42,096 bases of DNA from a virus: the IMG/VR virus record IMGVR_UViG_3300045988_168302, positions 1 to 42,096 of that record. One strand, 5' to 3'. Both the position numbers and the translations under genes were made by a program. The notes under the pieces are model-generated. The model saw only the letters and a list, made by a program, of their open reading frames with translations, searched no databases and had not been told where the DNA came from. Shown here piece after piece: positions 19,603 through 42,096 of this stretch; positions within the stretch are counted from its first letter, which is position 1; every line of letters starts with the position of its first letter.

Positions 19603-19706
19603 GTTTACTTTACTTTTTGCAAAAATCTATACATTTACTTGACTTTAAAAGTAAAGTAGGTGTGTAGATTTAACTAAAAAGTAAAGTTGATAATGAGGTG
19701 ATGAAA

Positions 19707-20156
19707 ATGCAGGAGCTTAGTATATTTTTAAAATCATTGATACCAGTAAGATTAGAAATAGAAGTAGGTGTTATAGTGGCTTTTTGTGGTACTGTGGTTA
19801 ATTATTTTTTAGGGCAATGGACACCACTATTAGAAACACTAATTATATTTATGTTGTTTGATTATATAACTGGAGTAATGTCTGCATGGATTAATCCATA
19901 TAAAAAGCTCGATAGCAGGAAAGGTATGAACGGATTAAAAAGAAAAGGTGTAATTTTAATAATGGTGATGGTCGGACATTTTTTTGATAATGCTATTGGA
20001 CAAAATACCATGACACGTGATATAGTAGCACTTTTCTATCTTGGCAATGAGGGATTATCTATATTAGAAAATGTAGCAAATTGTGGGGTGCCTGTGCCGA
20101 ATAATCTAAAAGATAAATTAGCACAATTCGCAGATGATAAAACTACTAGAAATTAA
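19707..20156 (+). CDS. Holin of the TcdE/UviB family (phage_holin_4_1).
   Basis: Three predicted TM segments. The C-terminus NCGVPVPNNLKDKLAQFADD matches TcdE LCGLPVPKRLKEKIAILLDA. ATG 19707 has the best spacing to gaggtg. Alternative starts lie at 19698 and 19701. Confidence 0.65.
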   Translation: MQELSIFLKSLIPVRLEIEVGVIVAFCGTVVNYFLGQWTPLLETLIIFMLFDYITGVMSAWINPYKKLDSRKGMNGLKRKGVILIMVMVGHFFDNAIGQNTMTRDIVALFYLGNEGLSILENVANCGVPVPNNLKDKLAQFADDKTTRN

Positions 20157-23027: not shown

Positions 23028-23771
23028 ATGTTAAACAATCAACTTGTACTGAAATATGAAGCAGGTGGCAATCCTGCAACTGTAAGTACAGGAAGCGGAG
23101 ATTTAGGCGGTAAATCTTATGGAAGATATCAATTTTCAAGTACAGCTGGTGTAGTTGAAAACTTTGTTGAATGGCTGTGCAATTATCCTGAAGCTTGCTA
23201 TGCAAATTATGGTAGAGTCTTAAAAAATGCCTATCCAGTTAATTCAAGTGGATTTATAAATGAATGGAAATCTATCGGTACAATAGATGCCGAAGGTTTT
23301 GGCAAATTGCAAGACGAATATGCAGGCGATATGTACTATAATGTAGGCTATTTTAATTTATTAAATGGCGGATATGATATCACCAAACACAATGAAACCA
23401 TGAAAGCGGTATTATTCAGTCGTGCCATTCAATATGGCCCAGCAAATATGTGTGAACTTTGGACAGAAGCAGTAAGACTTATGGGACACCCAGAAATTAG
23501 CTGGGTAGATGATAAATGCTTTGATAGGGAAATGATTGAATGCATATATAATTTTCTGATCCAAGAATGTGATAATGCATATTTAACTTCTAAAGGTACT
23601 TATCATAGCCCTAAAGATTGGGCAAATGGTAGCTATGACGTAGTAAAAATAGGGCTTAGAAATCGTTTTATAAATGAAAAGGCTGATGCATTAAAACTAC
23701 TTGAAGATGAGGGTTTTGAAAAAAATAAAAATATAAAATCTAGTAAAGCCTTACCAATAAAGGATTTTTAG
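23028..23771 (+). CDS. Putative lysozyme-like peptidoglycan hydrolase (GH108-like motif), a candidate endolysin.
   Basis: KYEAGGNPATVSTGSGDLGGKSYGRYQF resembles the GH108 signature EGGYvnDpnDpGGeTkyGI. The later LFSRAIQYGPANMCELWTEAV corresponds to LFDFAVNaGvgrAakfLQ. Preceded by the repeated regulatory element. Confidence 0.35.
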   Translation: MLNNQLVLKYEAGGNPATVSTGSGDLGGKSYGRYQFSSTAGVVENFVEWLCNYPEACYANYGRVLKNAYPVNSSGFINEWKSIGTIDAEGFGKLQDEYAGDMYYNVGYFNLLNGGYDITKHNETMKAVLFSRAIQYGPANMCELWTEAVRLMGHPEISWVDDKCFDREMIECIYNFLIQECDNAYLTSKGTYHSPKDWANGSYDVVKIGLRNRFINEKADALKLLEDEGFEKNKNIKSSKALPIKDF

Positions 23772-25256: not shown

Positions 25257-25289
25257 AAAAAAAGACTACCTTATTTGGTAGTCTTTTTT
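25257..25289. terminator. Bidirectional terminator at the 3' end of the minus-strand gene.
   Basis: aaaaaagactacc-ttattt-ggtagtctttttt. The stop codon of the minus gene lies in the loop. Confidence 0.75.
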
Positions 25290-26824
25290 ACTCTAGTACA
25301 CCCACATGATTTACTATAACCATTAATTACATAAGATTTATTGAATTCCTTTATATTGCCACAATCACATTTACAGACAACTCTATTTTTACCTAGTTCT
25401 TTTATAATGGTGAGATGATTAAATTTTTGCCCTGTTCTATCTATAATACTTTTTGTTTTCCTCAAACATCCGCATGATTTTGTATGACCGTTAATAACGT
25501 TGTTTTTTGCTGTTTCAATGATATTCCCACAATCGCAACGACAACGAACTTTTGTTGTATTATATCCTTTAGAGTCTTTTACGTAAAATTCTTCTAATAC
25601 AGTAAGGGAATTAAATTTTTTACCTATTATATTTTCTGTAATGCGTTTTATTTTTATGGTTTTATAAGGGCAGTTTTTATCACCACAATATTTTTTTTCC
25701 TCTAAAATCACATCTTGTTTTTTAGCTTCAACAATGTTGCCACAATCACAACGGCAAATAACTTTTGTCTTATAACCACCATTTTCCTTTATAATGGTGA
25801 GGTGATTAAATTTTTTACCTATATAAGATTTAATTTTAGGGCCTCTAGTTATGCATCCACAAGATTTTGTGTTGCCACTAACTATTGTTGATTTTTTTAA
25901 TATTTTTACGTTTCCACAATCACATTTACAAAGAACTTTATCGCCGCCTAGCTCTTCTAATATAGTGAGCATGTTAAATTTCTTACCTACATAAGATTTA
26001 CGAACTTGTGTTTTTTTATTAGCAAAATAGTTTCTTATAATAGGAAGGAAATATTTCTTTTCTGCTTCTTTTCGAGCTTTAATGGCTTCTTCTTTAGTAT
26101 CAAATTTCCCTAAAGAAATTAAAGTATTACTGATACCAATTTTAGCCTCCCATTTATTCAATTTAGGGCGGAAAAATACTCCGTTTATTCCGCTTTTATT
26201 ATTTTTAGCAAGCTTCCTATTGCTTATAAGCTTTATATTAGTACAACGTATACTAAATTTTTTTAAACCATTATGCATTTTATCTGTTCTGGATTTATTA
26301 GCGCATAAATTACATGAGGTGGATTTATGATGTGTTAAATTTGCTGTTAAAACTATTGTTGTATTACCACAACTACATTTGCATAACCATTTTACTGGCT
26401 TATTTTGTATTTTTTTTATAACTGTAAGATTGCCAAAAACTTTTCCTGTTAAATCAATAAAGTTCGGATTTTCTTTAGAAATACATCCACAGTCTTTTAT
26501 TGAACCATTAATCACACGGTCTTTTCTTAAAATTTTTTCATTGCCACAATCACAACGGCAAAGAATTTTGTTTTCTCCAAGTTCTTTAATAATGGTAAGA
26601 TGATTGAATTTTTCTCCTTCTTTATTATCGATTTTGTATTGTCCACTATTAATAAATTCATAACGTTTGCACCCACAGGATTTTGTTTTTCCTGTTTTAA
26701 CTTTATATTTATCGTATTCCTTAACTGTTCCACAATCACAGCGACAAATAATTCTATTATTACCTAATTCTTTTATAACTGTAAGATAGTTAAATTTCTG
26801 TCCTGTTAAATCTATAAATTTCAA
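25271..26824 (-). CDS. Protein of about eight tandem Cys-rich modules ([F]xxLTVIKELGxNKxxCxCDCGNxK...GxTKSCGC) around a central AP2/ERF-type DNA-binding domain.
   Basis: The AP2 consensus SGINGVFFRPKLNKWEAKIGI..SLGKFDTKEEAIKARKEA lies at about 26050..26210. TTG start at 26824 has a perfect SD aaggagtg 6 nt upstream. The in-frame ATG at 26878 has no SD. Confidence 0.65.
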   Translation of the reverse strand: MKFIDLTGQKFNYLTVIKELGNNRIICRCDCGTVKEYDKYKVKTGKTKSCGCKRYEFINSGQYKIDNKEGEKFNHLTIIKELGENKILCRCDCGNEKILRKDRVINGSIKDCGCISKENPNFIDLTGKVFGNLTVIKKIQNKPVKWLCKCSCGNTTIVLTANLTHHKSTSCNLCANKSRTDKMHNGLKKFSIRCTNIKLISNRKLAKNNKSGINGVFFRPKLNKWEAKIGISNTLISLGKFDTKEEAIKARKEAEKKYFLPIIRNYFANKKTQVRKSYVGKKFNMLTILEELGGDKVLCKCDCGNVKILKKSTIVSGNTKSCGCITRGPKIKSYIGKKFNHLTIIKENGGYKTKVICRCDCGNIVEAKKQDVILEEKKYCGDKNCPYKTIKIKRITENIIGKKFNSLTVLEEFYVKDSKGYNTTKVRCRCDCGNIIETAKNNVINGHTKSCGCLRKTKSIIDRTGQKFNHLTIIKELGKNRVVCKCDCGNIKEFNKSYVINGYSKSCGCTRVKKTTK

Positions 26825-26904
26825 ATTACTCACTCCTTGATAGATAATCAAAGATAAGCTATAATATTTACAGCTCATCTGATTAATAGAAACATTAGAT
26901 GTAA

Positions 26905-27079: not shown

Positions 27080-27108
27080 TTGACAATATATTTAATTTAA
27101 TATATTAT
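27080..27108 (+). promoter_or_regulatory. Sigma70-like promoter, TTGACA-17-TATTAT, pointing into the noncoding structured region.
   Basis: Perfect -35 and near-consensus -10 with 17-nt spacing. No ORF lies downstream before 28010. Confidence 0.5.
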
Positions 27109-27112
27109 AAAG

Positions 27113-27630
27113 GTGTAAATAATTTGACAATTTAATAAAAAGTTTTTAGAAATAAAAAAGACCAAACGTGTTACCAGCACGATTGGTCTTGCCGAACAAC
27201 CTACCACTAATAAGTTGTCCGAGTAAATTTCTAAACTCATTATAGGCAATTTTAAACGATATGTCAACGATATATCGCAAATTTTAATGATTTTAGGTAG
27301 GAATAGTAGGCACATTTACATTTTTCCCATGTGGGAATGATGATAAATGTGTTTTTTTAGTATCTAAAATCAGGTATGGGAATAAACCATATCAGCGTGC
27401 CATGATGCTTATTCATGGAAAGCGAGAGCTACACTTGGCAAGGTGTATAAACTAGGATTGCAGAAAGTAATCCACTGTATCGTCAGCAGAGGCAGGGAAA
27501 TCGGCGGGGCATTTGGATATATTCTACTATCCAAATTTACCTAAGAGGGCGGAATGTCGTTAAACTCCCTTAATAAGCCTAACCTATTATATAAATTGCA
27601 AATCAGAGCCGTTTTAAGGCTCTTTTTTTA
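27113..27630 (+). ncRNA. Candidate structured noncoding RNA of about 0.5 kb, promoter-driven and terminated at 27603..27630. Its class is unknown.
   Basis: No plausible ORF. GC content is well above the genome background. Multiple hairpins (27160..27195, 27524..27549). Terminator agagcc-gttttaa-ggctct-ttttttt. Confidence 0.35.
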
Positions 27631-28009: not shown

Positions 28010-28198
28010 ATGCCAACGATAAAAGAAATAAAAGCTATAGCAAAAGATAGAGCTGTAGTACTACCAAAGAAAGCAAAAAAAGCAGATATGATACATATAT
28101 TGCAGAAGCAAGAGGGAAATAATCCTTGTTATGCAACTAAACAATGTAATATAGATGTGTGCCTTTGGTATAAGGATTGCCAAAAGGCAATAAAATAA
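28010..28198 (+). CDS. Small protein with a Rho_N/SAP-like N-terminus and a Cys-rich tail.
   Basis: IKEIKAIAKDRAVVLPKKAKKADMIHIL fits the Rho_N pattern. RBS gaaggtg. Confidence 0.4.
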   Translation: MPTIKEIKAIAKDRAVVLPKKAKKADMIHILQKQEGNNPCYATKQCNIDVCLWYKDCQKAIK

Positions 28199-28229
28199 GG
28201 AGCTACTAAAACAGTAACTCCTTTTTTTA
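28197..28229 (+). terminator. Rho-independent terminator.
   Basis: aaggagctac-taaaaca-gtaactcctt followed by ttttttt. Confidence 0.6.
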
Positions 28230-28286
28230 TAATCAAATTTGCGTTCCGACTATTAGATATGAAATTTGTATTTATTTGAAAATAGC

Positions 28287-28673
28287 TCATGAATTTTGGA
28301 CGTCGTTCATCACGACTTGAAGAATAAAATTATTTACACTTCGGTCTTGTTTTTGAGCTTCTTCTTTTACCTTGATATATAAATCCATATCAAGATTTAA
28401 ACATATTTTACCTTGTGGTTTAAATAGTTTTTCTACATCATTAAGCTCATTGTACATATTCTTTTTTAAAGTCTGTTTGATGTATCCTGTTACTGTTCTG
28501 CCTACGCTAGTAGCTTTATCTTTTAGACGAGTTTTTATTTCTTCTGTAACATAGAGAAATACTGTTTTTTTAGTATTTCTTGTAGGTGTTGGTATTGGTT
28601 TTTCAATTTTATCTTCGATCGGTTTTTTTTCTGTGAAAAATTCCGATGCTACAGTGAATTTTTTATTTGCCAT
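28287..28673 (-). CDS. Tandem ribbon-helix-helix protein, a likely ParG/CopG-like centromere-binding partner of ParA.
   Basis: Two beta-strand plus helix-helix units (KKTVFLYVTEEIKTRLKDKATSVGRTVTGYIKQTL and KICLNLDMDLYIKVKEEAQKQDRSVNNFILQVV). It overlaps the end of parA by 11 nt. Confidence 0.5.
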   Translation of the reverse strand: MANKKFTVASEFFTEKKPIEDKIEKPIPTPTRNTKKTVFLYVTEEIKTRLKDKATSVGRTVTGYIKQTLKKNMYNELNDVEKLFKPQGKICLNLDMDLYIKVKEEAQKQDRSVNNFILQVVMNDVQNS

Positions 28674-29379
28674 AATTTATTACCTCGTTAACGAAACTTT
28701 TATAATCTCGACCAGCATTACTATATTTTGCATAGTCGAAAATATTTTGTTTTAAATTTTGAGCTTCTGGAATAGCTACACATTCTCTTATTTGAGTATC
28801 AAAAACTCTTGTTCCATAATCAACTGTTTTTGATTTTAGCTCTTCTAATATATTTTGGGCTATTATAGTTCTAGCTTTAAATCTAGTTAGAAGAACACCC
28901 ATTATTTTTACTTGCACCTTTTGTATTTTTTCTATCAAGATATTTATACCCTGTGCAGAAAAAGTATCTGCGTGGGCAGTGATGATTATATAATCACTGG
29001 CACATAAAGCATTAATTGTAGTAATGCCTAGTGCTGGAGCTGTATCAATAATGATGTAGTCATATTTATCTTTTATGGGCATGAGTAAATCGTGCAAGAT
29101 AAATTCATATCCTGCACCACCTTGAATTTTTACAATATCAGGCGAGCCAGCAATCATATCGTTTTTGATACACTGATCTACAGCTGTTTCTTCTGTGAGC
29201 ATATCGAAAATATTATACTTATTATTCATGCAATTTTCTGCATTAGATAAATTGCATTGTGAATCTAGGTCAATTAGCAAGACTTTCTTTTTATAAAATT
29301 TTCTAAGTCCTGCTGCTAGGTTTTGGGCAGTAGTAGTTTTACCAACTCCGCCTTTTTGGTTTACAATACTAATTATCAT
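28663..29379 (-). CDS. parA: ParA/Soj-family partition ATPase.
   Basis: Deviant Walker A motif IVNQKGGVGKTTTAQNLA. 238 aa. RBS ggtgg. Confidence 0.85.
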   Translation of the reverse strand: MIISIVNQKGGVGKTTTAQNLAAGLRKFYKKKVLLIDLDSQCNLSNAENCMNNKYNIFDMLTEETAVDQCIKNDMIAGSPDIVKIQGGAGYEFILHDLLMPIKDKYDYIIIDTAPALGITTINALCASDYIIITAHADTFSAQGINILIEKIQKVQVKIMGVLLTRFKARTIIAQNILEELKSKTVDYGTRVFDTQIRECVAIPEAQNLKQNIFDYAKYSNAGRDYKSFVNEVINYGK

Positions 29380-29466
29380 AATTCTACCACCTTTTTAATA
29401 TAATTATACCATACAATTAATTATAAAATATAGTATTATTATATTTTATTTATAATATTTTTATAA

Positions 29467-29509
29467 CAAAAAAGGATATTACCAGGGCATTAGTAATATC
29501 CTTTTTTTA
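29467..29509. terminator. Bidirectional terminator with the conserved loop cagggcatta.
   Basis: aaaaaa-aggatattac-cagggcatta-gtaatatcct-ttttttt. Confidence 0.7.
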
Positions 29510-29863
29510 TTAAAGTTCATCAACAGCTGTAATTTTTACTTCAAAATGATTTTCTAATAATTCGTCAAATAAATCTGAACCATCAATTTCATCATTGTAA
29601 TACTTTTCTACGATTGATTTAGCTTTTGCTTCATCTTCTTTATTTACAAAAACAAATTCAATCATTATATCATATGCTTCGTCTTCTTCTTTATCATAAA
29701 ATGTGAATGATGGATTTTTATCTTCTACTAAGTTTCCACCATCTTCATAATCGAAAATAGATTTTCCACCGAGTTTTACCATTTCAGTATCAATTGCAAA
29801 TAAATCAATTGTTTCACCTAATAATTTTTTTGCTTCGTTAATAGTTTCTTGTTTGCTCATCAT
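29510..29863 (-). CDS. Acidic small protein, paralog A of a pair. Candidate DNA-mimic, anti-defence or immunity protein (speculative).
   Basis: 117 aa, very D/E-rich. The N-terminus MMSKQETINEAKKLLG is shared with 30045..30386. It has its own promoter and terminator. Confidence 0.6.
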   Translation of the reverse strand: MMSKQETINEAKKLLGETIDLFAIDTEMVKLGGKSIFDYEDGGNLVEDKNPSFTFYDKEEDEAYDIMIEFVFVNKEDEAKAKSIVEKYYNDEIDGSDLFDELLENHFEVKITAVDEL

Positions 29864-29916
29864 GATTAATTACCTCTTTTTATTATTTATTTCTTGTAGT
29901 TCCTTACTACACTTAT

Positions 29917-29945
29917 ATAATACCATATAAATAATATAATGTCAA
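29917..29945 (-). promoter_or_regulatory. Sigma70 promoter, TTGACA-17-TATTAT, for acidic gene A.
   Basis: Minus-strand reading gives ttgaca ttatattatttatatgg tattat. It is duplicated at 30439..30467. Confidence 0.65.
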
Positions 29946-30007
29946 CATAAAAATAATATAAAAATACCATAAAAATAATATAATTAAGATATAAATAGAT
30001 AAAAAAG

Positions 30008-30046
30008 AAGGCATCACCAAGGGCATTTGGCGATACCTTACTTTTT
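30008..30046 (-). terminator. Minus-strand terminator. The 12-bp stem is perfect only on the minus-strand RNA (two G-U pairs). Loop AATGCCCT.
   Basis: aaggcatcacca-agggcatt-tggcgatacctt. The plus strand has C-A mismatches. A T-run follows on the minus strand. Confidence 0.6.
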
Positions 30047-30386
30047 AAAGTTCTTCGATATTTGTAATTTCAATCGTAGTTTTACGTGCTTCTTCTTCTA
30101 ATTCCCATTCTTCTAATTCATCATTTATATATTTTTCATTACATTCTTTAGCATTGCCACTTATTATTTTATAAGTAACACCAAGATAAAAAACTTCATC
30201 TTCATTATCTACAAAAGTCCAACAAGGTTGTTCGTCATTGATGAATTCGCTTACGCTTAATTCATCAAAAATTGAACCAGCACCAAGTTTTACCATTTCA
30301 TTATCCAAGTCTGTATAACCGAATAATTGAAATTGTTTCCCAATTAAATTTTTTGCTTCGTTAATAGTTTTTTCTTTGCTCATCAT
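30045..30386 (-). CDS. Acidic small protein, paralog B.
   Basis: 113 aa. The N-terminus MMSKEKTINEAKNLIG matches paralog A. The upstream ~110 bp are near-identical to the region upstream of paralog A. Confidence 0.6.
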   Translation of the reverse strand: MMSKEKTINEAKNLIGKQFQLFGYTDLDNEMVKLGAGSIFDELSVSEFINDEQPCWTFVDNEDEVFYLGVTYKIISGNAKECNEKYINDELEEWELEEEARKTTIEITNIEEL

Positions 30387-30438
30387 GATTAATTCCTCAT
30401 TTCATTTATTTTTTTATGTAGTTCCTTACTACACTTAT

Positions 30439-30467
30439 ATAATACCATATAAATAATATAATGTCAA
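30439..30467 (-). promoter_or_regulatory. Sigma70 promoter, TTGACA-17-TATTAT, for acidic gene B.
   Basis: Duplicate of the promoter at 29917..29945. Confidence 0.65.
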
Positions 30468-30611
30468 TAGAAAAATAATATAAAAATACCATAAAAATAA
30501 TATAAATTTAAAATAAAACACAATATATAGTGGTTTTTGCAAACTCAATCAAAGTCAGTCAAAAATCTTGGAAAATCCATTTGGAGAATACATATTTTTG
30601 GCAAAATAAAA

Positions 30612-30660
30612 AAGGTAGACACTAGATATTGTGTTTCTAGCATCTACCTTGATATTTTGA
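30612..30660. terminator. Terminator hairpin downstream of the minus-strand membrane-protein gene.
   Basis: aaaaaa-ggtagacactag-atattgtgttt-ctagcatctacc-ttgatatttt. Confidence 0.5.
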
Positions 30661-30707
30661 CTTCCTATTTCTTACAAAATATGAAGTTAAATGTTTCACG
30701 TGGAACA

Positions 30708-30989
30708 TTATTTATTTATTTCTTTTTTTAAGGCATCTAAAACTTTATATAGTATGGATAAAATATGATAAAAACATGCTATACCGACAAATGCTAAATA
30801 TGCTAAAGCATAATTTAGATTATTTAAAAATGTAATATCGTCCCAATCAGAAAATAGATTTATTATTAGAATAGATGCTACAAATATGATACCAAGTATT
30901 ATTAAAAATTTAGGGAAAAATAAATCTATATCAGTATATAATCTTTTATTTTTCACATATTCATAAAATTTTTGTTCTTGTTCGTTCAT
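30708..30989 (-). CDS. Small membrane protein with two TM helices, a candidate superinfection exclusion protein.
   Basis: 93 aa with two hydrophobic helices. It lies in the repressor-proximal module. Confidence 0.5.
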   Translation of the reverse strand: MNEQEQKFYEYVKNKRLYTDIDLFFPKFLIILGIIFVASILIINLFSDWDDITFLNNLNYALAYLAFVGIACFYHILSILYKVLDALKKEINK

Positions 30990-31009
30990 AATAAAATTTC
31001 TCCTCTTTA

Positions 31010-31516
31010 TTAGTTTGGATAAATACTTTCTATTGCTTTATATGCAAAATCTTTTAATTGATTTAAAGATATACTACTATCATAAAAAGAAGTAAAGCAA
31101 GAATAAACTCTACCATTTTTATAATAATATGTATGTACTTCTTTAGTATTATTGTTGTTTTTTGTTATATAGATAATTCCATTTTTTATAGGTATTTTTT
31201 CTATATATATAATATTATTAAACTTGTTTTTTATATTGTTTTCCCATTCATTTAAAAAGTTTTTTGAATTTACGTTATAAGGAACATAGAATATGTCATG
31301 GATATTAAAGTACTCATTGTTTTCTGATTCTAAAAAATAACTGCTATAAAAAGGCGTTGTTATTATTATACTAGAATATCCAAGGCTTATTTCTGTAGTT
31401 AATGGAGATATATCCCAAAATACTGTACAATTTTCAGCTTTTATTTTAGTACTAGCAAATGATGTAGGAATACAGATAAAAAAAGATAATAGAAAAATAA
31501 TAATAATTCTTTTCAT
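31010..31516 (-). CDS. Secreted protein with a signal peptide.
   Basis: MKRIIIIFLLSFFICIPTSFAS. RBS aaggag. 168 aa. Confidence 0.55.
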   Translation of the reverse strand: MKRIIIIFLLSFFICIPTSFASTKIKAENCTVFWDISPLTTEISLGYSSIIITTPFYSSYFLESENNEYFNIHDIFYVPYNVNSKNFLNEWENNIKNKFNNIIYIEKIPIKNGIIYITKNNNNTKEVHTYYYKNGRVYSCFTSFYDSSISLNQLKDFAYKAIESIYPN

Positions 31517-31564
31517 TGCAAAGACTCCTTTATATTTTATTCAATAAAATTATACATCATAAAA

Positions 31565-31598
31565 GAAAAGACCACCATTAATGGTGGTCTTTTTTTAT
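31565..31598. terminator. Bidirectional terminator.
   Basis: aaaag-agaccacc-attaat-ggtggtct-ttttttt. Confidence 0.75.
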
Positions 31599-32086
31599 GC
31601 TCTGTTTTCTATGGTATCGTCGATAATATTTGTAGTAGTGGAAGCTGTATATTCGTTTTTTCCCTCTGCTACTTTTAATTCATTGGCTACCTGATTAAGC
31701 TTTTCGTCGTAAGTTTTTTCTTCATCAGAAGGACTTACCATAGCTTTTAAAATAGAAACAAAATTTTTACGCTGAATTTTAGGAAGATTTATATAGCTTT
31801 TTATAATTGATAATTCATCTTCATCTAAATCGAATTCTTTTACTAGGTCATTTATAATATTTTTTTCTGTAGTTTGATAAACTTCACCAGTACCATTTAA
31901 TATCCATTCTTTATTAATAGAATAAATATCACAAATATGATTTATTAATAGTTCTTTTGGCTCAACTCGATTTAGTTCAATATTTGCTATTACGTATTTA
32001 CCTACCCCCAAACGTTCACCAAATTCTTCTTGGTTTAAATTTTTTTCTTTACGAATAAACTTTATTCTTTCTTGTATAGTTTTCAA
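31595..32086 (-). CDS. XRE-family HTH repressor, CI-like, with a C-terminal oligomerisation or sensor domain. TTG start.
   Basis: The HTH is NLNQEEFGERLGVGKYVIANIELNRVEP. SD gaggtg 5 nt before TTG 32086. It is divergent from the early operon across palindromic operators. Confidence 0.7.
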   Translation of the reverse strand: MKTIQERIKFIRKEKNLNQEEFGERLGVGKYVIANIELNRVEPKELLINHICDIYSINKEWILNGTGEVYQTTEKNIINDLVKEFDLDEDELSIIKSYINLPKIQRKNFVSILKAMVSPSDEEKTYDEKLNQVANELKVAEGKNEYTASTTTNIIDDTIENRA

Positions 32087-32107
32087 AATATCACCTCACT
32101 TAATTAT

Positions 32108-32136
32108 ATAATACTAGGTCTATAAATTGTTGTCAA
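32108..32136 (-). promoter_or_regulatory. Leftward sigma70-like promoter for the repressor gene (-35 TTGACA inside operator 1, 17-nt spacer, -10 TATTAT).
   Basis: Minus-strand reading gives ttgaca acaatttatagacctag tattat. Confidence 0.55.
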
Positions 32137-32143
32137 CAATTTA
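32123..32143. promoter_or_regulatory. Operator 1, a 21-bp palindrome TAAATTGTTG-t-CAACAATTTA.
   Basis: Perfect inverted repeat. The half-site is shared with operators 2 and 3. Confidence 0.65.
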
Positions 32144-32164
32144 TAGGGAAAAATATAAAAATAA

Positions 32165-32179
32165 ATTGTTGACAACAAT
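32165..32179. promoter_or_regulatory. Operator 2, ATTGTTG-a-CAACAAT, overlapping the -35 of the rightward promoter.
   Basis: Perfect 15-bp palindrome. Confidence 0.65.
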
Positions 32180-32197
32180 AAAAAATATTGCTAAAAT
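32169..32197 (+). promoter_or_regulatory. Rightward early promoter, TTGACA-17-TAAAAT.
   Basis: Consensus -35, 17-nt spacer and a good -10. It points toward the small ORF at 32256 and the rep region. Confidence 0.55.
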
Positions 32198-32227
32198 ATG
32201 CTTGTAACAATTAATTTATTATTTTTG

Positions 32228-32240
32228 TTGTTTATAACAA
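32228..32240. promoter_or_regulatory. Operator 3 (TTGTT-tat-AACAA), weaker, next to the RBS of the first early gene.
   Basis: Half-site palindrome related to operators 1 and 2. Confidence 0.4.
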
Positions 32241-32255
32241 TAAGGAGTTGTTAAT

Positions 32256-32411
32256 ATGGAAAAAAATCAAAATTTAAATGAAATAAAAAAAGAATTATTA
32301 GAAGATGTAATTCCTAATCTTAAAAAATATAAGGAACAGGGAAAAGACGTTGTTCTTCTTAAAGGTATTGCTATTGGTTTAAAAATAGCTAAAGAAGAAA
32401 AGATTGCATGA
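32256..32411 (+). CDS. Small early protein of 51 aa, in the Cro position. Not in the supplied ORF track because it is under 60 aa.
   Basis: Strong RBS taaggag with 7-nt spacing. The frame is open from ATG to TGA. Confidence 0.4.
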   Translation: MEKNQNLNEIKKELLEDVIPNLKKYKEQGKDVVLLKGIAIGLKIAKEEKIA

Positions 32412-32433
32412 GGTTTATTTTTAGTTAAAAAAA

Positions 32434-32484
32434 TGCAAGTAGATATATAGAGAGATTTTGAGATAAGTTATATATCTACTTGCA
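32434..32484. promoter_or_regulatory. Large perfect inverted repeat: 16-bp arms tgcaagtagatatata / tatatatctacttgca with a 19-nt loop.
   Basis: Perfect 16/16 complementarity. No T-run follows. Confidence 0.5.
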
Positions 32485-32639
32485 GAAATGAAGAAAACTT
32501 TGCAAATGAAATTATAGCATCATTAAGAATAACTATGGTTTTATTGAGTAATACAAGCCCAGCAACGCACCCAAACCCTATCTCTAAAAAGTAAAAAAGT
32601 AAATATAAATTTGCTGGGCTTGTCTACTTAATAAAAGGA

Positions 32640-32822
32640 GTGGTGATTATGTATAGGTTAGGATATTGCAAATTGATGAAGGTAAAAGAACTTCGCAGGA
32701 TTGTACATAATTATGGAATATTACATGCTGTTCAATCGTTAGGAGCTAATAAAGAAAGGAGAGCAAAATATGGATTTAAAAGAGTTGAAAGAAGTGGCAA
32801 AGCCACTGGTCAAATATCTTAG
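32640..32822 (+). CDS. Small ORF of 60 aa. An alternative to the overlapping 32771..32926 ORF.
   Basis: RBS aaaaggagtgg. Basic protein. Confidence 0.3.
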   Translation: MVIMYRLGYCKLMKVKELRRIVHNYGILHAVQSLGANKERRAKYGFKRVERSGKATGQIS

Positions 32823-32926
32823 AGAAAATGAAAATCCGCATCAGAAAATCATTATCGACCAAGTGTCGGTAAAAATCATTTTTGATGATGTATTTATACC
32901 AATTGTAGAAGTTAATAAGCTTTAAA
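32771..32926 (+). CDS. Small ORF of 51 aa.
   Basis: RBS aaaggagag 6 nt before ATG. Confidence 0.35.
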
Positions 32927-32962
32927 AGAATAGAAAAGTAAAATCTTTATCAGGTCTTTTTT

Positions 32963-32993
32963 AAAAGGGGTTCTCGCCCCTTTTATGACTTGA
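32963..32993 (+). promoter_or_regulatory. GC hairpin (aaaaGGGG-ttctcg-CCCCtttt) followed by CTTGATA. Terminator and/or double-strand origin nick site for the adjacent Rep.
   Basis: The only GGGG/CCCC stem in the region. CTTG/ATA at 32987..32993 matches the nick motif of pC194/phiX-type rolling-circle origins. It is 80 nt upstream of rep. Confidence 0.45.
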
Positions 32994-33075
32994 TAAAGAT
33001 ATTATTTTAATAATCATGCAGTACATATTTATATAAATAAAAATACATAAAAAATAAAAGAAAGGAGTAAGCAAT

Positions 33076-33978
33076 ATGTCTTATGTTAAGAAACAGACAA
33101 GTATAAATAATGATAATATCTTGGAGATATATTACACCAAGAAATTACCTGTAAAGAATAATATAAGAAGCCCAAAAATGGGACTTACTCCTTTGGCACA
33201 AGAAGAAGTGAATAACAAGAATTCTATAAATTTGTTAAGGCTTCTTATTTTAAATAATTTTGGTGATGGGGATTTATTTCTATCTCTAACTTATAAAGAT
33301 AAGAAAGAGGAAAATAAAAAAGAACCGACACCAGAAGAAGCGAAAAAGCATTTGGCTAATTTTAGACAGAAGTTAATTCGTTTCTATAAAAAGAAAAATG
33401 CTGTAGTGAAGTATATATTTTGTACGGAATGTACTTCAAAACAGCAAAGAATACATCACCATTTGCTTTTAAAAGTTGAAGGTTGTGATGTAAATCCAAC
33501 AGATATAAAAAATCTTTGGGGACATGGTTTCGTATCTGTAAAAATCTATGGCGGACAAATAACAGATGCCGAAGACCTCGCAAATTACATGGTGAAGAAA
33601 AAGAGAAATGCTTTCTTCACTGCTCCAGGAGTATTCAAAAAAAGGTATAACGCTAGTAAAAACTTGGAAAAACCGCAAGTTACTAGCGTTATTGTGCGTA
33701 GGAAATATTGGCTAAGAGAACCAAGAATTCCGAAAGGATATATGCTGGACAAAAACAGTCTTATAAATGGTATTTATACATTTGGTAATGGAGAAAGCGA
33801 TTATGAATACCAATTTTATAGATTAATCAAGATTGATAAACCTGCAAGGCGAATAAACTTGCAGGAAAAAGTGAAAGCTAAAAGAGTTAAAAAAGAAATC
33901 TACTTTACACATAATCTAAACAAAATAGATTTCTTAATAAAATACAAAAAGCCTAGAGCCGAAAGCAATACGAGCTAA
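33076..33978 (+). CDS. rep: Rolling-circle replication initiator (HUH endonuclease Rep).
   Basis: Motif 1 FLSLTYKD at ~33274. Motif 2 IHHHLLLKV (HUH) at 33455..33463. Motif 3 LANYMVKKK with the catalytic Tyr at 33586. Confidence 0.7.
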   Translation: MSYVKKQTSINNDNILEIYYTKKLPVKNNIRSPKMGLTPLAQEEVNNKNSINLLRLLILNNFGDGDLFLSLTYKDKKEENKKEPTPEEAKKHLANFRQKLIRFYKKKNAVVKYIFCTECTSKQQRIHHHLLLKVEGCDVNPTDIKNLWGHGFVSVKIYGGQITDAEDLANYMVKKKRNAFFTAPGVFKKRYNASKNLEKPQVTSVIVRRKYWLREPRIPKGYMLDKNSLINGIYTFGNGESDYEYQFYRLIKIDKPARRINLQEKVKAKRVKKEIYFTHNLNKIDFLIKYKKPRAESNTS

Positions 33979-34028
33979 TTTGCTCTAGAATTTGCTTTAC
34001 AAAAAAATAAAAAAATGAGGTGCAGCAG

Positions 34029-34436: not shown

Positions 34437-34437
34437 T

Positions 34438-35409: not shown

Positions 35410-35413
35410 TGAA

Positions 35414-35497: not shown

Positions 35498-35498
35498 A

Positions 35499-37069: not shown

Positions 37070-37285
37070 ATGAATATAAATTACAATAAGGATAAGACTG
37101 ATGAGATAAGAGAAATCATAAAAAGCAGAATGAATGAAACAGGTATATCAATTAAGAAATTATCTAAAAAAAGCAAGGTCGGATATTTTATATTAAGGCT
37201 TTATATTTTGGGAAAGCAAGATATAAGAGCAGGGGACGCAATGGCTATATTAGATGCATTAAATATCAGATATAAATTTTATTAA
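37070..37285 (+). CDS. Small HTH protein.
   Basis: ISIKKLSKKSKVGYFILRLYILGKQDIRAGDAMAILDAL has an HTH-like pattern. 71 aa. Confidence 0.4.
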   Translation: MNINYNKDKTDEIREIIKSRMNETGISIKKLSKKSKVGYFILRLYILGKQDIRAGDAMAILDALNIRYKFY

Positions 37286-37302
37286 AAAATTTAAAAAAGT
37301 GT

Positions 37303-37392: not shown

Positions 37393-37414
37393 TTTTTATA
37401 TCTAGGAGGTGTTT

Positions 37415-37885
37415 ATGCCAGCAACAAAATCTTTATATAAATATCAATTTTTCGATAAAAATATAAAGATTAAAAATAAGTCTGATAAAAATAAATGGCT
37501 AAATGAATATATATTGTGTGGCTCTGTAACAGACACCTGCAAAAAAAGAAATATATCTCGTACTACCTTCTATGATTGGCTCAAAAATGATGAAGTATTT
37601 AGAAAAGCATATAAAGAAGAAGCTAAACCAATGATTACATCACTACTCGAAGATGAAGCATATAGAAGGGCAGTAGTAGGAGTTAATAAAAGTGTTTTTT
37701 ATAGGGGTACAAAGGTAGCAACAATGAAAGTTTATAGTGATTCACTATTGCAGTTATTGTTGCAAGCTAACTGCCCAGAAAAATATAAGCAAGTTGTAGA
37801 TAGCACTGTTAAGACAGATATAACAGTAAAATCTGAAAACTTAACAGACGCTTTGGCGGAAAGGATAAGAAAAGCAGATGAATGA
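37415..37885 (+). CDS. terS: Terminase small subunit-like protein with an HTH.
   Basis: SRTTFYDWLKNDEVFRKAY is an HTH. It sits immediately upstream of the large terminase and overlaps it. RBS taggagg 5 nt before ATG 37415. Confidence 0.55.
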   Translation: MPATKSLYKYQFFDKNIKIKNKSDKNKWLNEYILCGSVTDTCKKRNISRTTFYDWLKNDEVFRKAYKEEAKPMITSLLEDEAYRRAVVGVNKSVFYRGTKVATMKVYSDSLLQLLLQANCPEKYKQVVDSTVKTDITVKSENLTDALAERIRKADE

Positions 37886-39338
37886 TTTTGAGATAAAAAC
37901 AAAAGATGATTTGAATTCTGCTTTGGATTTTTTGGCACATTTTACAAATGATCCAGTAGGATTTGTAAAAGCAGCGTTTGATTGGGAACATGATCCAACG
38001 CTAGAAGGAAAATCTCCGCAACAATGGCAACTTGATATATTGCAGGATATAAAAGATAACTTACTCACTACACAGACAGCTATAAGAATAGCAGTATCTA
38101 GTGGTCATGGTATCGGTAAATCTGCTTTGGTAGCATGGATAATCTTATGGTCCATAACTACCTATCCAGATAGTAGGGCAGTAGTTACAGCAAATACAGA
38201 TAGCCAGTTAAAATCTAAAACTTGGCCAGAAGTTCAAAAGTGGTTTAATAAATTTATTTTAAAAGATTTATTTATCTGCACGGCTACTACACTTACTACA
38301 AAGGAAATTGCTCATCAGAAAACATGGCAGGCAAATGCTATACCATGGAGCAAAGAAAACTCCGAAGCTTTCGCAGGTCTACACAATCAAGGGAAAAGAA
38401 TTACTCTCATTTTTGATGAAGGCTCAGCGATTGAAGACATTATCTATGAAGTAGCAGAAGGTGCTTTGACAGATAAAGACACACAGATTATCTGGTGTGT
38501 TTTTGGAAATCCTACAAGAAATACAGGAAGGTTTTTTGAATGTTTCCATAAGCATAGAAATCTTTGGAAATGTAGGCAAATAGATAGCCGAACTGTAGAT
38601 ATATCCAATAAAGAACAGCTTCAGCAGTGGGTTGATACCTACGGAGAAGATAGCGACTTTGTCAGAGTCCGTGTACGAGGTGTTTTTCCTAGTGCTAGTG
38701 AATATCAGTTTATACCTAGAAAAATCGTTGATGAAGCAAGTGAAAGAAAAATACTTGAACAGCAAGTATCATTTGCACCTGTGATAATAGGGGTTGATCC
38801 TGCATGGACTGGCGGAGATACAACAGATATTTATTTAAGACAGGGGCTATATTGCAAACTGCTAGGCGAATATCAAAAAAATGATGATGATATGCGAATG
38901 GCTAATATTATAGCTAAGTTTGAAGATGAGTATAAAGCTGATGCCGTAAATATAGATTTTGGCTATGGTACTGGTATCTATAGTGCAGGTCTTAGCATGG
39001 GCAGAAGGTGGAACTTAATCAAGTTTGGTTCTAAAGCGAATAAGAAAGGATTTGCTAATAAACGTGCAGAGATATGGGGAGAAACAAAACAGTGGTTAAT
39101 AGATGGCGGTGCTATCGAAGATGACCAACAGCTAAAAGATGATTTAACGTCCCCAGAATACACGATAAATAATAAAGGCGAAATCTTACTTGAAAGTAAA
39201 GAGTCCATGAAAAAAAGAGGATTGGCTTCACCAAACAGGGCAGACGCATTAGCACTTACATTTGCAATTAATGTTGTCAAGAAAAGCCAAAGAGTAACAA
39301 AATGCAATACAGATTATGATCCATTTGCAGACTTTTAA
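37878..39338 (+). CDS. terL: Terminase large subunit.
   Basis: Walker A motif SSGHGIGKSALV. 486 aa, with an ATPase domain followed by a nuclease domain. Confidence 0.8.
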   Translation: MNDFEIKTKDDLNSALDFLAHFTNDPVGFVKAAFDWEHDPTLEGKSPQQWQLDILQDIKDNLLTTQTAIRIAVSSGHGIGKSALVAWIILWSITTYPDSRAVVTANTDSQLKSKTWPEVQKWFNKFILKDLFICTATTLTTKEIAHQKTWQANAIPWSKENSEAFAGLHNQGKRITLIFDEGSAIEDIIYEVAEGALTDKDTQIIWCVFGNPTRNTGRFFECFHKHRNLWKCRQIDSRTVDISNKEQLQQWVDTYGEDSDFVRVRVRGVFPSASEYQFIPRKIVDEASERKILEQQVSFAPVIIGVDPAWTGGDTTDIYLRQGLYCKLLGEYQKNDDDMRMANIIAKFEDEYKADAVNIDFGYGTGIYSAGLSMGRRWNLIKFGSKANKKGFANKRAEIWGETKQWLIDGGAIEDDQQLKDDLTSPEYTINNKGEILLESKESMKKRGLASPNRADALALTFAINVVKKSQRVTKCNTDYDPFADF

Positions 39339-39592: not shown

Positions 39593-41338
39593 ATGATAAG
39601 TTTACAATCCATGATGAATACGCTTGTTAATGTAAATGATGTAGCAGTAAGGCTGAATTTAGAGAAAAGAAGATATAAACAAAAAGTAAAACAGCTAGAA
39701 ACTGCACGATATGATTATGAAAAAAGATGGAAAAATATAAGAGATTACCAACTGCCACATATAGGGTATTTTGATGATACGGAAGATAGTACAAACTATG
39801 CTCGCCGTCGTGATACCAAAATTTATAATGGGATAGCATGGGAGTCAAATATAGTTTTTGCATCAGGATTGATGAGTGGACTTACACCACCATCACGTCA
39901 ATGGTTTCGATTGGCATTCTCTAATAGAGAGCTAAGCGATAATTCAGATTTTGGTGCAGTACTAGACCAAAGGCTAGAAATACTAAACAACGTACTAAAT
40001 AAATCAAATTTTTACAACACAATTCATTCTAATTATCTTGAAATCGCTTTTGGTCAGGCTGTTTTGGCTATTTTCCAAGACTCTAAAACAGGTGTACATT
40101 TTGTGCCATATACCATAGGTACGTATTATATCGAGCAAGGCCCAGATAAAAATATAAATACTATCTTGGTAAAAACAAAAATGACAGCACTGCAACTGCA
40201 AGATAAATTCGGCATTGAAGTATTGCCACAGATAATACAAAACAATCTAAAAAATAATCAATCGACAAGCACTAAATATACTGTTAATTGGCTTGTCGAG
40301 CCAAATCGTATGGCAAATGCAAATAAAATTGATAAATTCCATATGCCGTTTATTTCTCTTTATTGGCTTGATGAAGCAGAGGAAAATGAGTGGCTAAGTA
40401 TTGGCGGATTTCAAGAGTTCCCTGCTCCTGTAGCTAGATATCTAGTGAATGGGAATGAAACATATGCTAAAGCTCCTGGCTGGTTTGCTGAAGGAGATAA
40501 CAGGTCATTACAGTTATTAGAAAAAGATGATTTAGTAGCAGTTGAATTGGGAGTAAAACCACCAATGCAAGGAAGTGCTAATGCAACTATGAAAGGTGTA
40601 AATCTCGCTCCAGGTAGTTTCAATGTTACAGAAACAGAAGAAGGGATAAAGCCATTATTTCAAGTCGGTATCAACTTACAGCATTTGCATGAGAAAATAC
40701 AGCAATTAGAGGAAAGAGTAAAGAGAGCCTATAGTGCAGATTTATTCCGTATGCTTGACCAAGCCCAAAATGATAAATCAATGACGGCTAGGGAAGTAAT
40801 AGAAAGAACACAAGAAAAACTGCAACAATTAGGCCCTGTAGTCGAAAGGCTACAATTTGAATTTTTAAGTCCAATAATCGAGCGTGTTTATAACATCTTA
40901 GACCGTGCAGGGATTTTCCCACCAATAGAAGATCCACAAGCACAAGAAATCTTAAGTGGTGAAGAAATAAAAATTGAATATATCTCACCACTCGCACAAG
41001 CCCAAAAAATGAGTGGACTTGTAAATATCGAGCAAGCTTTTGCATTTGTAATGCAATTAGCACAGGGTGATCCAAATGTATTACACAAATTTAATTTTGT
41101 AGAAGCTTTAAATCGTTACTTTGAAATGCTAGGAGCACCATCTACAATTCGCCGAACTGATGATGAATACAATGAGATAATGCAAGGATTGCAACAACAA
41201 GCACAAGCAAAAGAAGCTGAACAAAATGCCATGAATATGATACAGTCTGCTGTTCCTGCCGCACAGGCTGCTAAAAATGCAACCGAAGCTGCAAATGATG
41301 GAAATCCAGCACTACAACAATTTTTAGGAATGGAATAA
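39593..41338 (+). CDS. Head-to-tail connector (portal), T7 gp8-like.
   Basis: LTPPSRQWFRLAFSNRE parallels T7 gp8 LFPMQTWMRLTISEYE. The Q/A-rich C-terminus also matches gp8. 581 aa. Confidence 0.75.
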   Translation: MISLQSMMNTLVNVNDVAVRLNLEKRRYKQKVKQLETARYDYEKRWKNIRDYQLPHIGYFDDTEDSTNYARRRDTKIYNGIAWESNIVFASGLMSGLTPPSRQWFRLAFSNRELSDNSDFGAVLDQRLEILNNVLNKSNFYNTIHSNYLEIAFGQAVLAIFQDSKTGVHFVPYTIGTYYIEQGPDKNINTILVKTKMTALQLQDKFGIEVLPQIIQNNLKNNQSTSTKYTVNWLVEPNRMANANKIDKFHMPFISLYWLDEAEENEWLSIGGFQEFPAPVARYLVNGNETYAKAPGWFAEGDNRSLQLLEKDDLVAVELGVKPPMQGSANATMKGVNLAPGSFNVTETEEGIKPLFQVGINLQHLHEKIQQLEERVKRAYSADLFRMLDQAQNDKSMTAREVIERTQEKLQQLGPVVERLQFEFLSPIIERVYNILDRAGIFPPIEDPQAQEILSGEEIKIEYISPLAQAQKMSGLVNIEQAFAFVMQLAQGDPNVLHKFNFVEALNRYFEMLGAPSTIRRTDDEYNEIMQGLQQQAQAKEAEQNAMNMIQSAVPAAQAAKNATEAANDGNPALQQFLGME

Positions 41339-41341: not shown

Positions 41342-41956
41342 ATGTTTTATGATGAAGAAAAAAAGAAAGATAAAGTTAGCATCGTAGAGCAAAAGCTTTT
41401 GGAATGTGATATAAATGCAATCAATTATCTATTAAAAGAACATCAGGGAAGATATTTTATAGCGTGGCTGTTTAACTACTGCAAGATAAATGCCACGACA
41501 TATAACATATTAAAGCCTAAAATGCTACAAAATGAAGGAAAAAGGCAAATTGCACTTGTGTATTATAGCTCAATAAAAAACTTGGCCATAAAAGATAAAA
41601 AGTTGGCCAGAAATTTTGAGCTAGTAGAACAAGAAAATCAACGTCCACAAAATATCATTGTGTATCTTAGAAACAAGCTATGCGAACAAAGAAAATTAAA
41701 AGAGGCTATGGACTATATACTAAATGATAAAAATGGACGTTGGTTTATAGCAAGATTGTATGAACAATGTCATATAACATTGTGGCCATATAACAATAAA
41801 ATAGACTATCTATATAAATGGGAAGGTGAAAGACAAGTAGCATTTAAAATAAATAAACTCATATCAAAATTTAATCTATTGAGTAAAAAACAGTTGGCCA
41901 TAAATGATTATGAACAATATAAACAATATCTTAAGAATTTAGTAAGAGGGGAATAA
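41342..41956 (+). CDS. Hypothetical protein built from two tandem ~75-aa repeats.
   Basis: NYLLKEHQGRYFIAWLFNYCKI.. and DYILNDKNGRWFIARLYEQCHI.. are internal duplicates. Confidence 0.5.
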   Translation: MFYDEEKKKDKVSIVEQKLLECDINAINYLLKEHQGRYFIAWLFNYCKINATTYNILKPKMLQNEGKRQIALVYYSSIKNLAIKDKKLARNFELVEQENQRPQNIIVYLRNKLCEQRKLKEAMDYILNDKNGRWFIARLYEQCHITLWPYNNKIDYLYKWEGERQVAFKINKLISKFNLLSKKQLAINDYEQYKQYLKNLVRGE

Positions 41957-41960: not shown

Positions 41961-42096
41961 ATGCAAAACTATATCAGTGTGAAAATGGTAAAAGCTGAAC
42001 CTTGCAAAGCATGGAAAGACTTCAAAGGTCATAAAGAAGGTGATGAAGGATATAAAATTTATTATCCTGATGGTTATGTATCTTGGTGTCCTAAAG
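41961..42096 (+). CDS. 5' part of the wrap-around ORF that continues at 3..659.
   Basis: RBS agagggg. The frame runs open to the window end. It is in frame with 3..659 across the duplicated 54 nt. Confidence 0.5.
   Translation, partial: MQNYISVKMVKAEPCKAWKDFKGHKEGDEGYKIYYPDGYVSWCPK

Follow-up and report, generated by a model that had tools for sequence, protein, structure and literature searches.

The DNA analyzed here (hereafter the window) is the whole 42,096-base stretch of a viral sequence, IMG/VR record IMGVR_UViG_3300045988_168302, and has a GC content of about 0.32. Alongside the virion genes of a podophage, it encodes a partition gene pair, a repressor switch, and a rolling-circle replication initiator. 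The partition pair lies on the minus strand. It consists of a small Walker-type ParA of 238 amino acids (28663..29379; AAA_31, 3e-41, from residue 2; CbiA, 3e-22; also ParA and MipZ), followed by an overlapping gene for a tandem ribbon-helix-helix (RHH) protein of 128 amino acids (28287..28673). The RHH protein matches HicB, ParG, Arc, CopG, and NikA in two separate stretches and is the candidate centromere-binding partner of ParA. A small ParA without an N-terminal helix-turn-helix (HTH) domain, followed by an overlapping RHH gene, is the layout of type Ib partition systems (the ParF/ParG or delta/omega type).

Three AT-rich repeat arrays with 11-bp phasing lie near the partition genes (26962-27034, 29917-30006, and 30447-30527), and two of them belong to duplicated gene cassettes. 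These cassettes encode two paralogs, both very acidic, of 117 and 113 amino acids (29510-29863 and 30045-30386, minus strand) between parA and the repressor gene; each gene is preceded by a copy of the array (29917-30006 and 30447-30527), with periods of 11 and 44 bp. We considered AATACCATA boxes as a centromere and rejected them: with one mismatch allowed, they are no more common than in shuffled sequence, and the four exact copies are in the two duplicated cassettes. The cargo between parA and the repressor gene differs among variants of the phage, as some have a 360-amino-acid gene there and others have genes of 165 and 181 amino acids.

The repressor is CI-like (31595..32086, minus strand; HTH_19, 3e-14). 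On the other side of the switch, an open reading frame (ORF) of 51 amino acids in the Cro position (32256..32411, plus strand) sits after the rightward promoter and is kept in all variants. A sequence scan of the CI/Cro interval (32108..32243) found three TTGTTGNCAACAA-type operator palindromes (32120-32146, 32161-32179, and 32228-32243) that overlap two near-consensus divergent promoters.

The next gene of interest (33076..33978, plus strand) encodes an HUH rolling-circle replication initiator (Rep) with one catalytic tyrosine. Rep belongs to PF23343 and has motif I, the HUH metal-binding motif, the catalytic tyrosine, and the HUH nuclease fold, and its fold matches parvovirus NS1/adeno-associated virus (AAV) Rep, the Helitron transposase, and TnpA-REP. 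An inverted repeat just upstream of rep (32928-33015) is a candidate origin, and it also reads as a terminator plus a promoter: the space from the Cro operon to rep contains a weak promoter and a GC-rich hairpin with a T-run (about 32963-32986). Because these elements separate rep from the Cro operon, Rep could be made separately from the lytic promoter, at a low level under repression.

We scanned all of the large ORFs and most of the small ones against Pfam, PHROG, and NCBIfam, and none matched an integrase, a resolvase, a helicase, a primase, or a DNA or RNA polymerase. These scans did catch integrases in two positive controls, Butyrivibrio phage Arawn (gp26) and an island that is discussed below (L050). 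Three further proteins were considered and set aside. First, a DNA-binding protein of 535 amino acids (25271..26878, minus strand), a candidate for a hidden recombinase, carries an "HNH endonuclease" label from PHROG (phrog_374, matched in eight stretches) and a weak AP2 match. In translation, it consists of eight zinc-ribbon-like repeats of about 45-50 amino acids each (GxKFNxLTxIxExG...CxCDCG...K(S)CGC) around a central AP2 domain, which leaves no space for a catalytic domain. No PDB match and no catalytic domain were found for it, and it is kept in all variants (517-571 amino acids). Second, the product of the 360-amino-acid gene that lies beside CI in some variants bears no relation to the integrase of Arawn and contains no integrase domain. 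Third, a protein of 335 amino acids in the early operon (34402-35409, plus strand) is a radical-SAM-type enzyme (CxxxCxxC motif, as CPRSCPFC; phrog_9298, 1e-81) and is missing from several variants. Otherwise near-identical variants that lack this gene have DUF4007 or YopX genes in its place.

Related genomes suggest that the partition genes have taken the place of an integrase. In a relative whose Rep is 56% identical (L047), the gene order is CI, Rep, ParA, and a ParB_N protein, followed by the terminase and a T7-type portal. A more remote resemblance is seen in temperate Clostridia phages such as Arawn, which have a PF23343 Rep (30% identity) in the early operon after a CI/Cro-type switch. 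These remoter members of the Rep family differ in that they are siphovirus-type or P22-portal-type prophages with tyrosine or large serine integrases by the repressor and no ParA. Judging from this gene content, the partition pair occupies the integrase slot, and par appears to replace int across the podophage lineage.

The first and last 54 bases of the window are identical, which gives a unique length of 42,042 bp. Once this overlap is removed, a gene of 246 amino acids (41961..42096, continuing over the junction to 659, plus strand; related to crAss001_48/Sequestin, PF21825) is continuous across the junction, and the same gene was called in another sequence (L001). Because of the end overlap and the gene that crosses the junction, the assembly is circular or circularly permuted. 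The first-pass annotation had described the circular closure, the HUH Rep, ParA with its tandem RHH partner, the divergent repressor/operator switch, and the lack of polymerases, primase, and integrase, and we found all of these as described; it had placed its entire claim at 28287-33978, which covers only the par-CI-Rep block and not the virion module.

The window corresponds to contig k119_141241 of ENA assembly ERZ27256611. Near-identical contigs of 40.7-42.6 kb are present in many human-gut metagenomes, and the members of the cluster are mostly on contigs of this size. Among index blocks with an identical large terminase (TerL), the longest contig was 20-50 kb in 42 and 50-200 kb in only 2. 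A megablast search with 25000-42096 found nothing similar in annotated phage or plasmid collections, and a search of species-representative genomes with the portal did not find a close relative. The window contains no tRNA genes and has no matches to Rfam 15 at the gathering threshold. We take the window to be a whole genome, that of a temperate podophage, not yet cultured, whose host is Lachnospira of the human gut (the L. eligens / L. rogosae group). Lachnospira is a common gut commensal with almost no characterized phages.

An integrated copy and its attachment site

One public contig (NODE_371 of ENA ERZ857992, 54,559 bp) has the window genome inside it, with 100% identity over the roughly 26 kb that we retrieved. 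The phage is linearized at one point, with non-phage DNA on both sides, and spans 42,062 bp, which is close to the unique length plus a repeated core. The left flank encodes BlaI, BlaR1, and a protein of 80 amino acids, and the right flank encodes spoIIP, an M20 peptidase, a pseudouridine synthase, and ligA. From base 718 on, the right flank matches the L. eligens chromosome at 97.7% identity, and its first 1.3 kb are 90.7% identical to [Lactobacillus] rogosae. As the contig holds the phage between host-type flanks, the phage can integrate.

Both junctions map to positions 37269-37287 of the window, with GATATAAATT at each end. The attP core, ATTAAATATCAGATATAAATT (37258..37278), lies just before the terminase operon, and its last 10 bp are duplicated at both ends of the prophage. 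This core is contained in the 3' end of a gene for an HTH protein of 71 amino acids (37070..37285, plus strand; weak HTH_26 and HTH_3 matches), whose product becomes 75 amino acids long in the integrated copy. The empty attB is visible in L. rogosae and in a Lachnospira metagenome-assembled genome, where the gene order is comEC-holA-rpsT-gpr-[attB]-spoIIP and where 21 bp (ATTAAATATCAGATATAAATT) are common with the phage at exactly that place. (The att sites are at 37258-37278 of the window, L017:2251-2270, L002:14195-14213, and L020:5934-5954.) The core shared by attP and attB and the attL and attR flanks of the prophage are thus both present, at one occupied site.

Host attB copies in public metagenomes, on L. 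rogosae-type contigs, were empty in 36 of 36 cases. Scans of public metagenomes found no attR junction, and no independent occupied site was found in the JGI metagenomes or IMG/VR. In our view, the phage does integrate, and at a specific site, but it does so rarely in the populations that were sampled.

To the left of the phage, NODE_371 carries the end of a roughly 7-kb island, which has its own tyrosine integrase and stops 34 bp short of the phage junction. This island (L017:1-2226; L050:4555-11501) also encodes ABC transporter genes, BlaI, a BlaR1-type M56 peptidase, and the 80-amino-acid protein, and it is present in another metagenome in a different context. The interval between gpr and spoIIP is possibly a hot spot for insertions. 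We considered the island's integrase as the agent of phage integration, but the island has a different end sequence and ends 34 bp away, so this seems possible only loosely. We also considered attB as a dif site of the Xer system, as used by IMEX elements, and found no similarity to the dif sites of B. subtilis, E. coli, or streptococci.

Other long contigs were not counted as further integrated copies. In NODE_282 (ENA ERZ773103; L011:11502-21461), a variant phage is joined after its large terminase gene to DNA that encodes dnaN, RNase T, Dfp, and TilS, among others (GC content 0.44 versus 0.29); the two parts meet at a ribosome-binding site and start codon, and we regard the contig as probably chimeric. 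Two longer scaffolds, of 86.7 kb and 47.3 kb, are not split at attP. The first of these (scaffold_47 of ENA ERZ28629240, 86,705 bp; L055) holds one copy of a variant phage, unsplit at attP, and is twice unit length; it may represent a cointegrate, integration at a second site, or an artefact of scaffolding.

Plasmid prophage or integrating prophage

The best single reading of the window is a phage-plasmid, amended to a dual-state phage that also integrates, and we consider this amended reading fairly likely. The phage-plasmid part is plausible because the lineage has ParA and no integrase, because nearly all of the public contigs are of unit length, and because every host attB in the public metagenomes is empty. 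The genome also combines a complete set of virion, packaging, lysis, and lysogeny-control genes with plasmid-type partition and replication genes, as expected of a phage-plasmid in the sense of Pfeifer et al. (2021, PMC7969092).

We propose that the DNA circularizes after infection and that the CI/Cro switch decides between lysis and lysogeny. During lysogeny, the genome would mostly persist as a low-copy circular plasmid, with its copies segregated by ParA and the RHH protein. Replication would be carried out by host enzymes and would start either by Rep nicking an origin or from a structured RNA/antisense pair beside the par genes (described below). The genome could also sit in the chromosome, recombined at attP with the site upstream of spoIIP, as shown for one metagenome contig.

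There are precedents for parts of this scheme. All of the phages with both episomal and integrated states that we know of have recombinases. Phages that alternate between the two states are known (PMC7969092), as are mycobacteriophages with parABS in place of the integrase (PMC7157519).

Several points weigh against a plasmid state or against the dual-state scheme. First, the case for a plasmid state is drawn from gene content and from statistics on contigs. Second, circular closure cannot tell a plasmid from a circularly permuted virion genome, which also gives unit-length circular contigs. Third, the Rep family alone is not a plasmid marker because ordinary integrating prophages also use it. 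Fourth, we identified neither a Rep nick site (no nick consensus is known for this family) nor centromere repeats, and no clear array lies directly at the parA promoter. Fifth, integration rests on a single contig whose left flank is a mobile island and not the expected gpr. Finally, a conserved site of 21 bp speaks for integration as a function under selection, and this is hard to square with the missing integrase.

In the most serious alternative, the phage would be an ordinary integrating temperate phage whose normal lysogenic site is the chromosome and whose recombinase is either a phage protein that we did not recognize or one acting in trans, from the host or from the resident island. 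The circular contigs would then be virion or induced DNA, and ParA and the RHH protein would have some other role, for example in regulation, in exclusion, or in the segregation of replicating genomes. This would account for the precise integrated copy with its duplicated core and for the 21-bp identity of attP and attB, which every phage variant and 36 host contigs retain. Also, the adjoining island in NODE_371 offers a tyrosine integrase, and the Rep family is common in integrating prophages. However, an integrase or resolvase domain is absent from all of the scanned ORFs, and the integrated span equals the free genome to within about 20 bp, which leaves no room for an extra integrase-sized gene. 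The island's end differs in sequence from the phage junction and is 34 bp from it. The numbers are also unfavorable, with 0 of 36 attB copies occupied and one credible host-joined contig versus dozens of unit length, and par replaces int across the lineage. On this evidence, ordinary integration is possible but rather unlikely.

A second alternative concerns only how the phage integrates. Rep itself might nick attP and a similar chromosomal sequence and join them, as AAV Rep or conjugative relaxases do. Besides the terminase, Rep is the sole recognized DNA-cutting enzyme in the genome, its fold matches the parvovirus NS1/AAV Rep, Helitron, and TnpA-REP enzymes, and the identity of attP with both versions of attB stops at the same right-hand border. 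If attP were a copy of the Rep origin, we would expect it to resemble the region upstream of rep, but the alignment score of 22 equals the mean of shuffled controls, and we rejected this idea. Moreover, attP lacks a hairpin with a nick-site loop, the Rep family has no established nick site, and a duplicated core of 10-21 bp is more typical of tyrosine or serine recombinases. We therefore think that integration by Rep is quite improbable.

Least probable of all is that NODE_371 is an assembly artefact and that the phage never integrates, being purely episomal or lytic: it is the only such contig, the other host-joined contig (NODE_282) looks chimeric, and the left flank is a mobile island found elsewhere in a different context, but the junctions at the same phage coordinate share 10-21 bp, which is too short for an assembly graph with k of at least 55 (k is assumed from the SPAdes-style contig name), the enclosed phage is exactly unit length, and independent genomes have the same 21-mer at exactly that chromosomal position.

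The first-pass annotation had proposed an episomal temperate phage-plasmid and had held that host DNA flanking an integrated prophage would speak against it. The partition genes in the integrase slot, the unit-length contigs, and the empty attB sites favor its proposal, while the integrated copy in NODE_371 supplies such flanks in part, and a purely episomal life is unlikely. Most of the known phage-plasmids are siphoviruses or myoviruses, with hosts in Proteobacteria, Bacillus, Clostridium, and Mycobacterium. The annotation had also called this lifestyle uncommon for T7-like morphology. It is true that few catalogued phage-plasmids are podoviruses (PMC7969092), but the virion relatives of this phage are temperate and a T7-type RNA polymerase is not expected in them (see below).

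Two groups of elements can be compared with the proposed phage-plasmid. Cluster A mycobacteriophages such as RedRock, Alma, and Miko are temperate tailed phages in which, as experiments have documented, a partition cassette stands where the integration cassette would be (Wetzel et al., 2020, PMC7157519). They are siphoviruses of Actinobacteria with ParA, ParB, and parS, whereas the window describes a Clostridia podovirus with ParA, an RHH protein, and an HUH Rep; the likeness is one of architecture, and no sequence relationship is expected. Five circular Clostridium perfringens plasmids of 37.5-40.4 kb carry a homologue of the window's Rep (30% identity). The one that we examined (NZ_CP102306.1, 38 kb) is an extrachromosomal replicon from an isolate that encodes a complete tailed-phage virion, regulators of the HTH type, a protein for partition, and the Rep homologue, with no annotated integrase. 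It differs in that its virion is of the siphovirus type, its partition protein is ParM and not ParA, and a separate annotated "plasmid replication protein" lies beside the partition gene.

The window combines known kinds of element: an epsilon15-type podovirus, a phage-plasmid with par for int, and a temperate phage with HUH-initiated replication. If the dual-state reading is true, it would be a podovirus-type phage-plasmid in Lachnospira, in which the integrase-for-partition swap took place in a phage with an epsilon15-type virion. Two points are of interest beyond the catalogue. One is the clean, site-specific insertion of a genome without a recognizable recombinase. The other is a strongly covarying, unclassified RNA that travels with parA while ParA, the repressor, and Rep diverge far more. 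Either could reveal a mechanism that is new: for the first, integration by an HUH enzyme or in trans; for the second, RNA-based prophage replication in Firmicutes. Either could also yield replicon parts for Lachnospiraceae genetics.

A structured RNA beside the partition genes

Between the gene for the zinc-ribbon protein and the par operon there is about 1.1 kb without ORFs, in which the GC content rises to 0.36-0.42 (0.18-0.28 nearby). The core of this region (27158..27571, plus strand) has the features of a structured non-coding RNA. Eleven variants of it, which are 76-95% identical, fold into one multi-helix structure. Within the core, 99.4% of cells pair, versus 39-46% if the partners are slid, and both-sided changes are seen in 23 pairs (77 cells) versus 0-5 pairs (0-12 cells) in the slid controls. 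The observed values were reached by no shuffle. Around an invariant GAATAAAC loop, one stem occurs in three sequence versions, and many invariant G-U pairs favor the plus strand. The structured RNA measures roughly 440 nt, and the likely sense transcript is about 500 nt long (about 27115 to 27631), from a TTGACA-17-TATTAT promoter (27080-27108) to a terminator (27605-27631).

A short antisense RNA of about 80 nt (27155..27232, minus strand) is predicted to overlap the 5' part of the sense RNA. Its promoter, TTGACA-17-TATAAT (27267-27239), matches the consensus at 12 of 12 positions, and its hexamers are invariant in the 11 variants while the spacer varies. Helix 1 and a T-run on the minus strand would terminate the antisense RNA.

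The structured RNA has no Rfam family; the only match was a weak one to an rli36 hairpin, outside of the core, at the E-value threshold. This match is in a second ORF-free stretch of raised GC content downstream of the structured RNA (27640-27990, plus strand), which ends in a hairpin with 18-nt arms (27851-27893; rli36, E = 0.007, below gathering).

The RNA is always accompanied by an ORF of 62 amino acids (28010..28198, plus strand) with a weak Rho_N/SAP-like N-terminus (PF07498) and a cysteine-rich C-terminus. Across nine IMG/VR contigs, the RNA is 76-95% identical in nucleotides and this ORF is 84-97% identical in amino acids. ParA is found just past the ORF in all seven of the loci that reach that far, with only 46-53% identity, and where CI and Rep are visible in these contigs they are 31-39% and 29-30% identical, respectively.

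The leading guess for the RNA, by analogy, is that together with the antisense RNA and the 62-amino-acid ORF, whose product would bind nucleic acid, it forms an RNA-based origin and copy-control unit of the plasmid prophage, which would leave the HUH Rep for lytic rolling-circle replication. This guess comes from the mycobacteriophages, where RNA-based prophage origins adjoin parABS: of the cluster A phages with par genes, 95% lack RepA and rely on a non-coding RNA next to parABS for the prophage origin (PMC7157519). The window phage likewise has a structured RNA and an antisense RNA adjoining its par genes. We regard an origin role as tentative and, taken by itself, improbable; a regulatory or other role is just as plausible. 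If an origin role is correct, this Clostridia podophage would have a replicon of the ColE1-like or RedRock-like kind and would also be able to enter the chromosome although it encodes no integrase itself.

The resemblance to ColE1 RNA II and RNA I is one of geometry only: a sense RNA of about 500 nt and a short antisense RNA from a strong promoter over its 5' end. There is no sequence or Rfam match to ColE1, whose type of replicon is known from Proteobacteria, and the window's sense RNA stops at a terminator of the intrinsic type.

The virion module and its relatives

The packaging and head genes, all on the plus strand, begin after attP. They encode the small terminase subunit (37409..37885; phrog_4044, 7e-28; weak Sf6_terminase match), the large terminase subunit (37878..39338; phrog_2, 1e-40; phrog_5902), a portal of the T7 gp8 family (39593..41338; PF12236, E = 5e-139; PDB 8ck0, 2e-95), and, between the portal and the capsid, a probable scaffold protein of 204 amino acids (41342..41956; weak Bbp19 match; phrog_528). 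Across the junction, they continue with a major capsid protein of the epsilon15 gp7 type (1360..2379; PF20911 GP7, E = 2e-107; PDB 3j40, 2e-56, and 3j4u, 1e-51), a gp11-like tail adaptor (2745..3344; phrog_394, 2e-45; PDB 8ck1_E "Connector Protein", 6e-20), and a gp12-like tail nozzle (3357..5927; phrog_376, 8e-201; PDB 8ck1_A "Tail Nozzle", 1e-100).

Internal and ejection proteins follow: a gp13-like protein (5902..6381; PF11090, 4e-9), a gp14-like internal virion protein (6514..7287; PF24072, 9e-9), an internal protein of 754 amino acids in the gp15 position with glucosaminidase and NlpC/P60 domains (7291..9555; PF01832, 1.5e-9; PF00877, 1e-4), and a giant ejection protein of 2492 amino acids in the gp16 position (9565..17043; phrog_9880, 5e-135). 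The giant protein has one HExxH motif and no Pfam or PDB sequence match. We considered it as a virion RNA polymerase and rejected this at the sequence level, as it also has no DxDGD or DxDxD motif. A tail fibre or spike (17046..19304; weak matches to the T7_tail N-terminal domain and to pectate lyases), a holin (19698..20156; PF05105, 6e-37), and a lysin (23028..23771; PF21277, 4e-29) complete the module.

The first-pass annotation had described these genes as T7-like and in the order of T7 genes 8 to 17. By Pfam, PHROG, and PDB matches, all of them are present, and from the portal through the capsid, adaptor, nozzle, and gp13/14/15/16-like proteins to the fibre they follow the T7 order. The label "T7-like" fits this gene order and the Pfam families of the portal, gp13, gp14, and the fibre N-terminus, but it does not fit the nearest sequences, which are those of epsilon15 and BPP-1. 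The nearest solved structures by sequence are epsilon15 gp7 (3j40), BPP-1 (3j4u), and 8cjz/8ck0/8ck1, and PDB sequence searches with the virion proteins returned no chain with a T7-style gene-product name. By portal, the isolated phages nearest to this one (31-35% identity) are temperate podoviruses of Proteobacteria, namely those of the epsilon15-like and BPP-1-like kinds and their relatives, including Ab31. The terminase genes are upstream of the portal, as in epsilon15, whereas T7 has its terminase downstream. Unlike T7 and other Autographiviridae, the phage is temperate and lacks an RNA polymerase, DNA polymerase, and primase/helicase in the ORFs scanned.

The gp7-type HK97-fold capsid, T7-family portal, adaptor and nozzle, and ejection proteins are together those of the epsilon15/BPP-1 virion lineage. 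From these comparisons, the virion module is T7-like in architecture and epsilon15/BPP-1-like in ancestry. As its virion relatives are the temperate epsilon15/BPP-1 group, no T7-type RNA polymerase is expected. The likeness to epsilon15 and BPP-1 extends to the gene order (TerS-TerL-portal-scaffold-capsid-adaptor-nozzle-internal proteins-fibre), the temperate lifestyle, and the absence of a single-subunit RNA polymerase. However, those phages infect Proteobacteria and have integrases (for example, an epsilon15-like E. coli record, NZ_CP079768.1, has a site-specific integrase and replication protein P), while the window phage has a Firmicute host, ParA and an RHH protein for the integrase, and an HUH Rep for the replication module.

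A direct repeat of 98 bp (22912-23009 and 37302-37399, plus strand; 93% identical) contains a promoter-like stretch and a terminator hairpin. The hairpins of the two copies fold at -23 and -21 kcal/mol (z of about -6), and each copy is directly upstream of a late operon, with the lysin at one and the small terminase at the other. The repeat is probably a late-operon leader, which suggests antitermination control of the late genes. Several Logan contigs end within this repeat.

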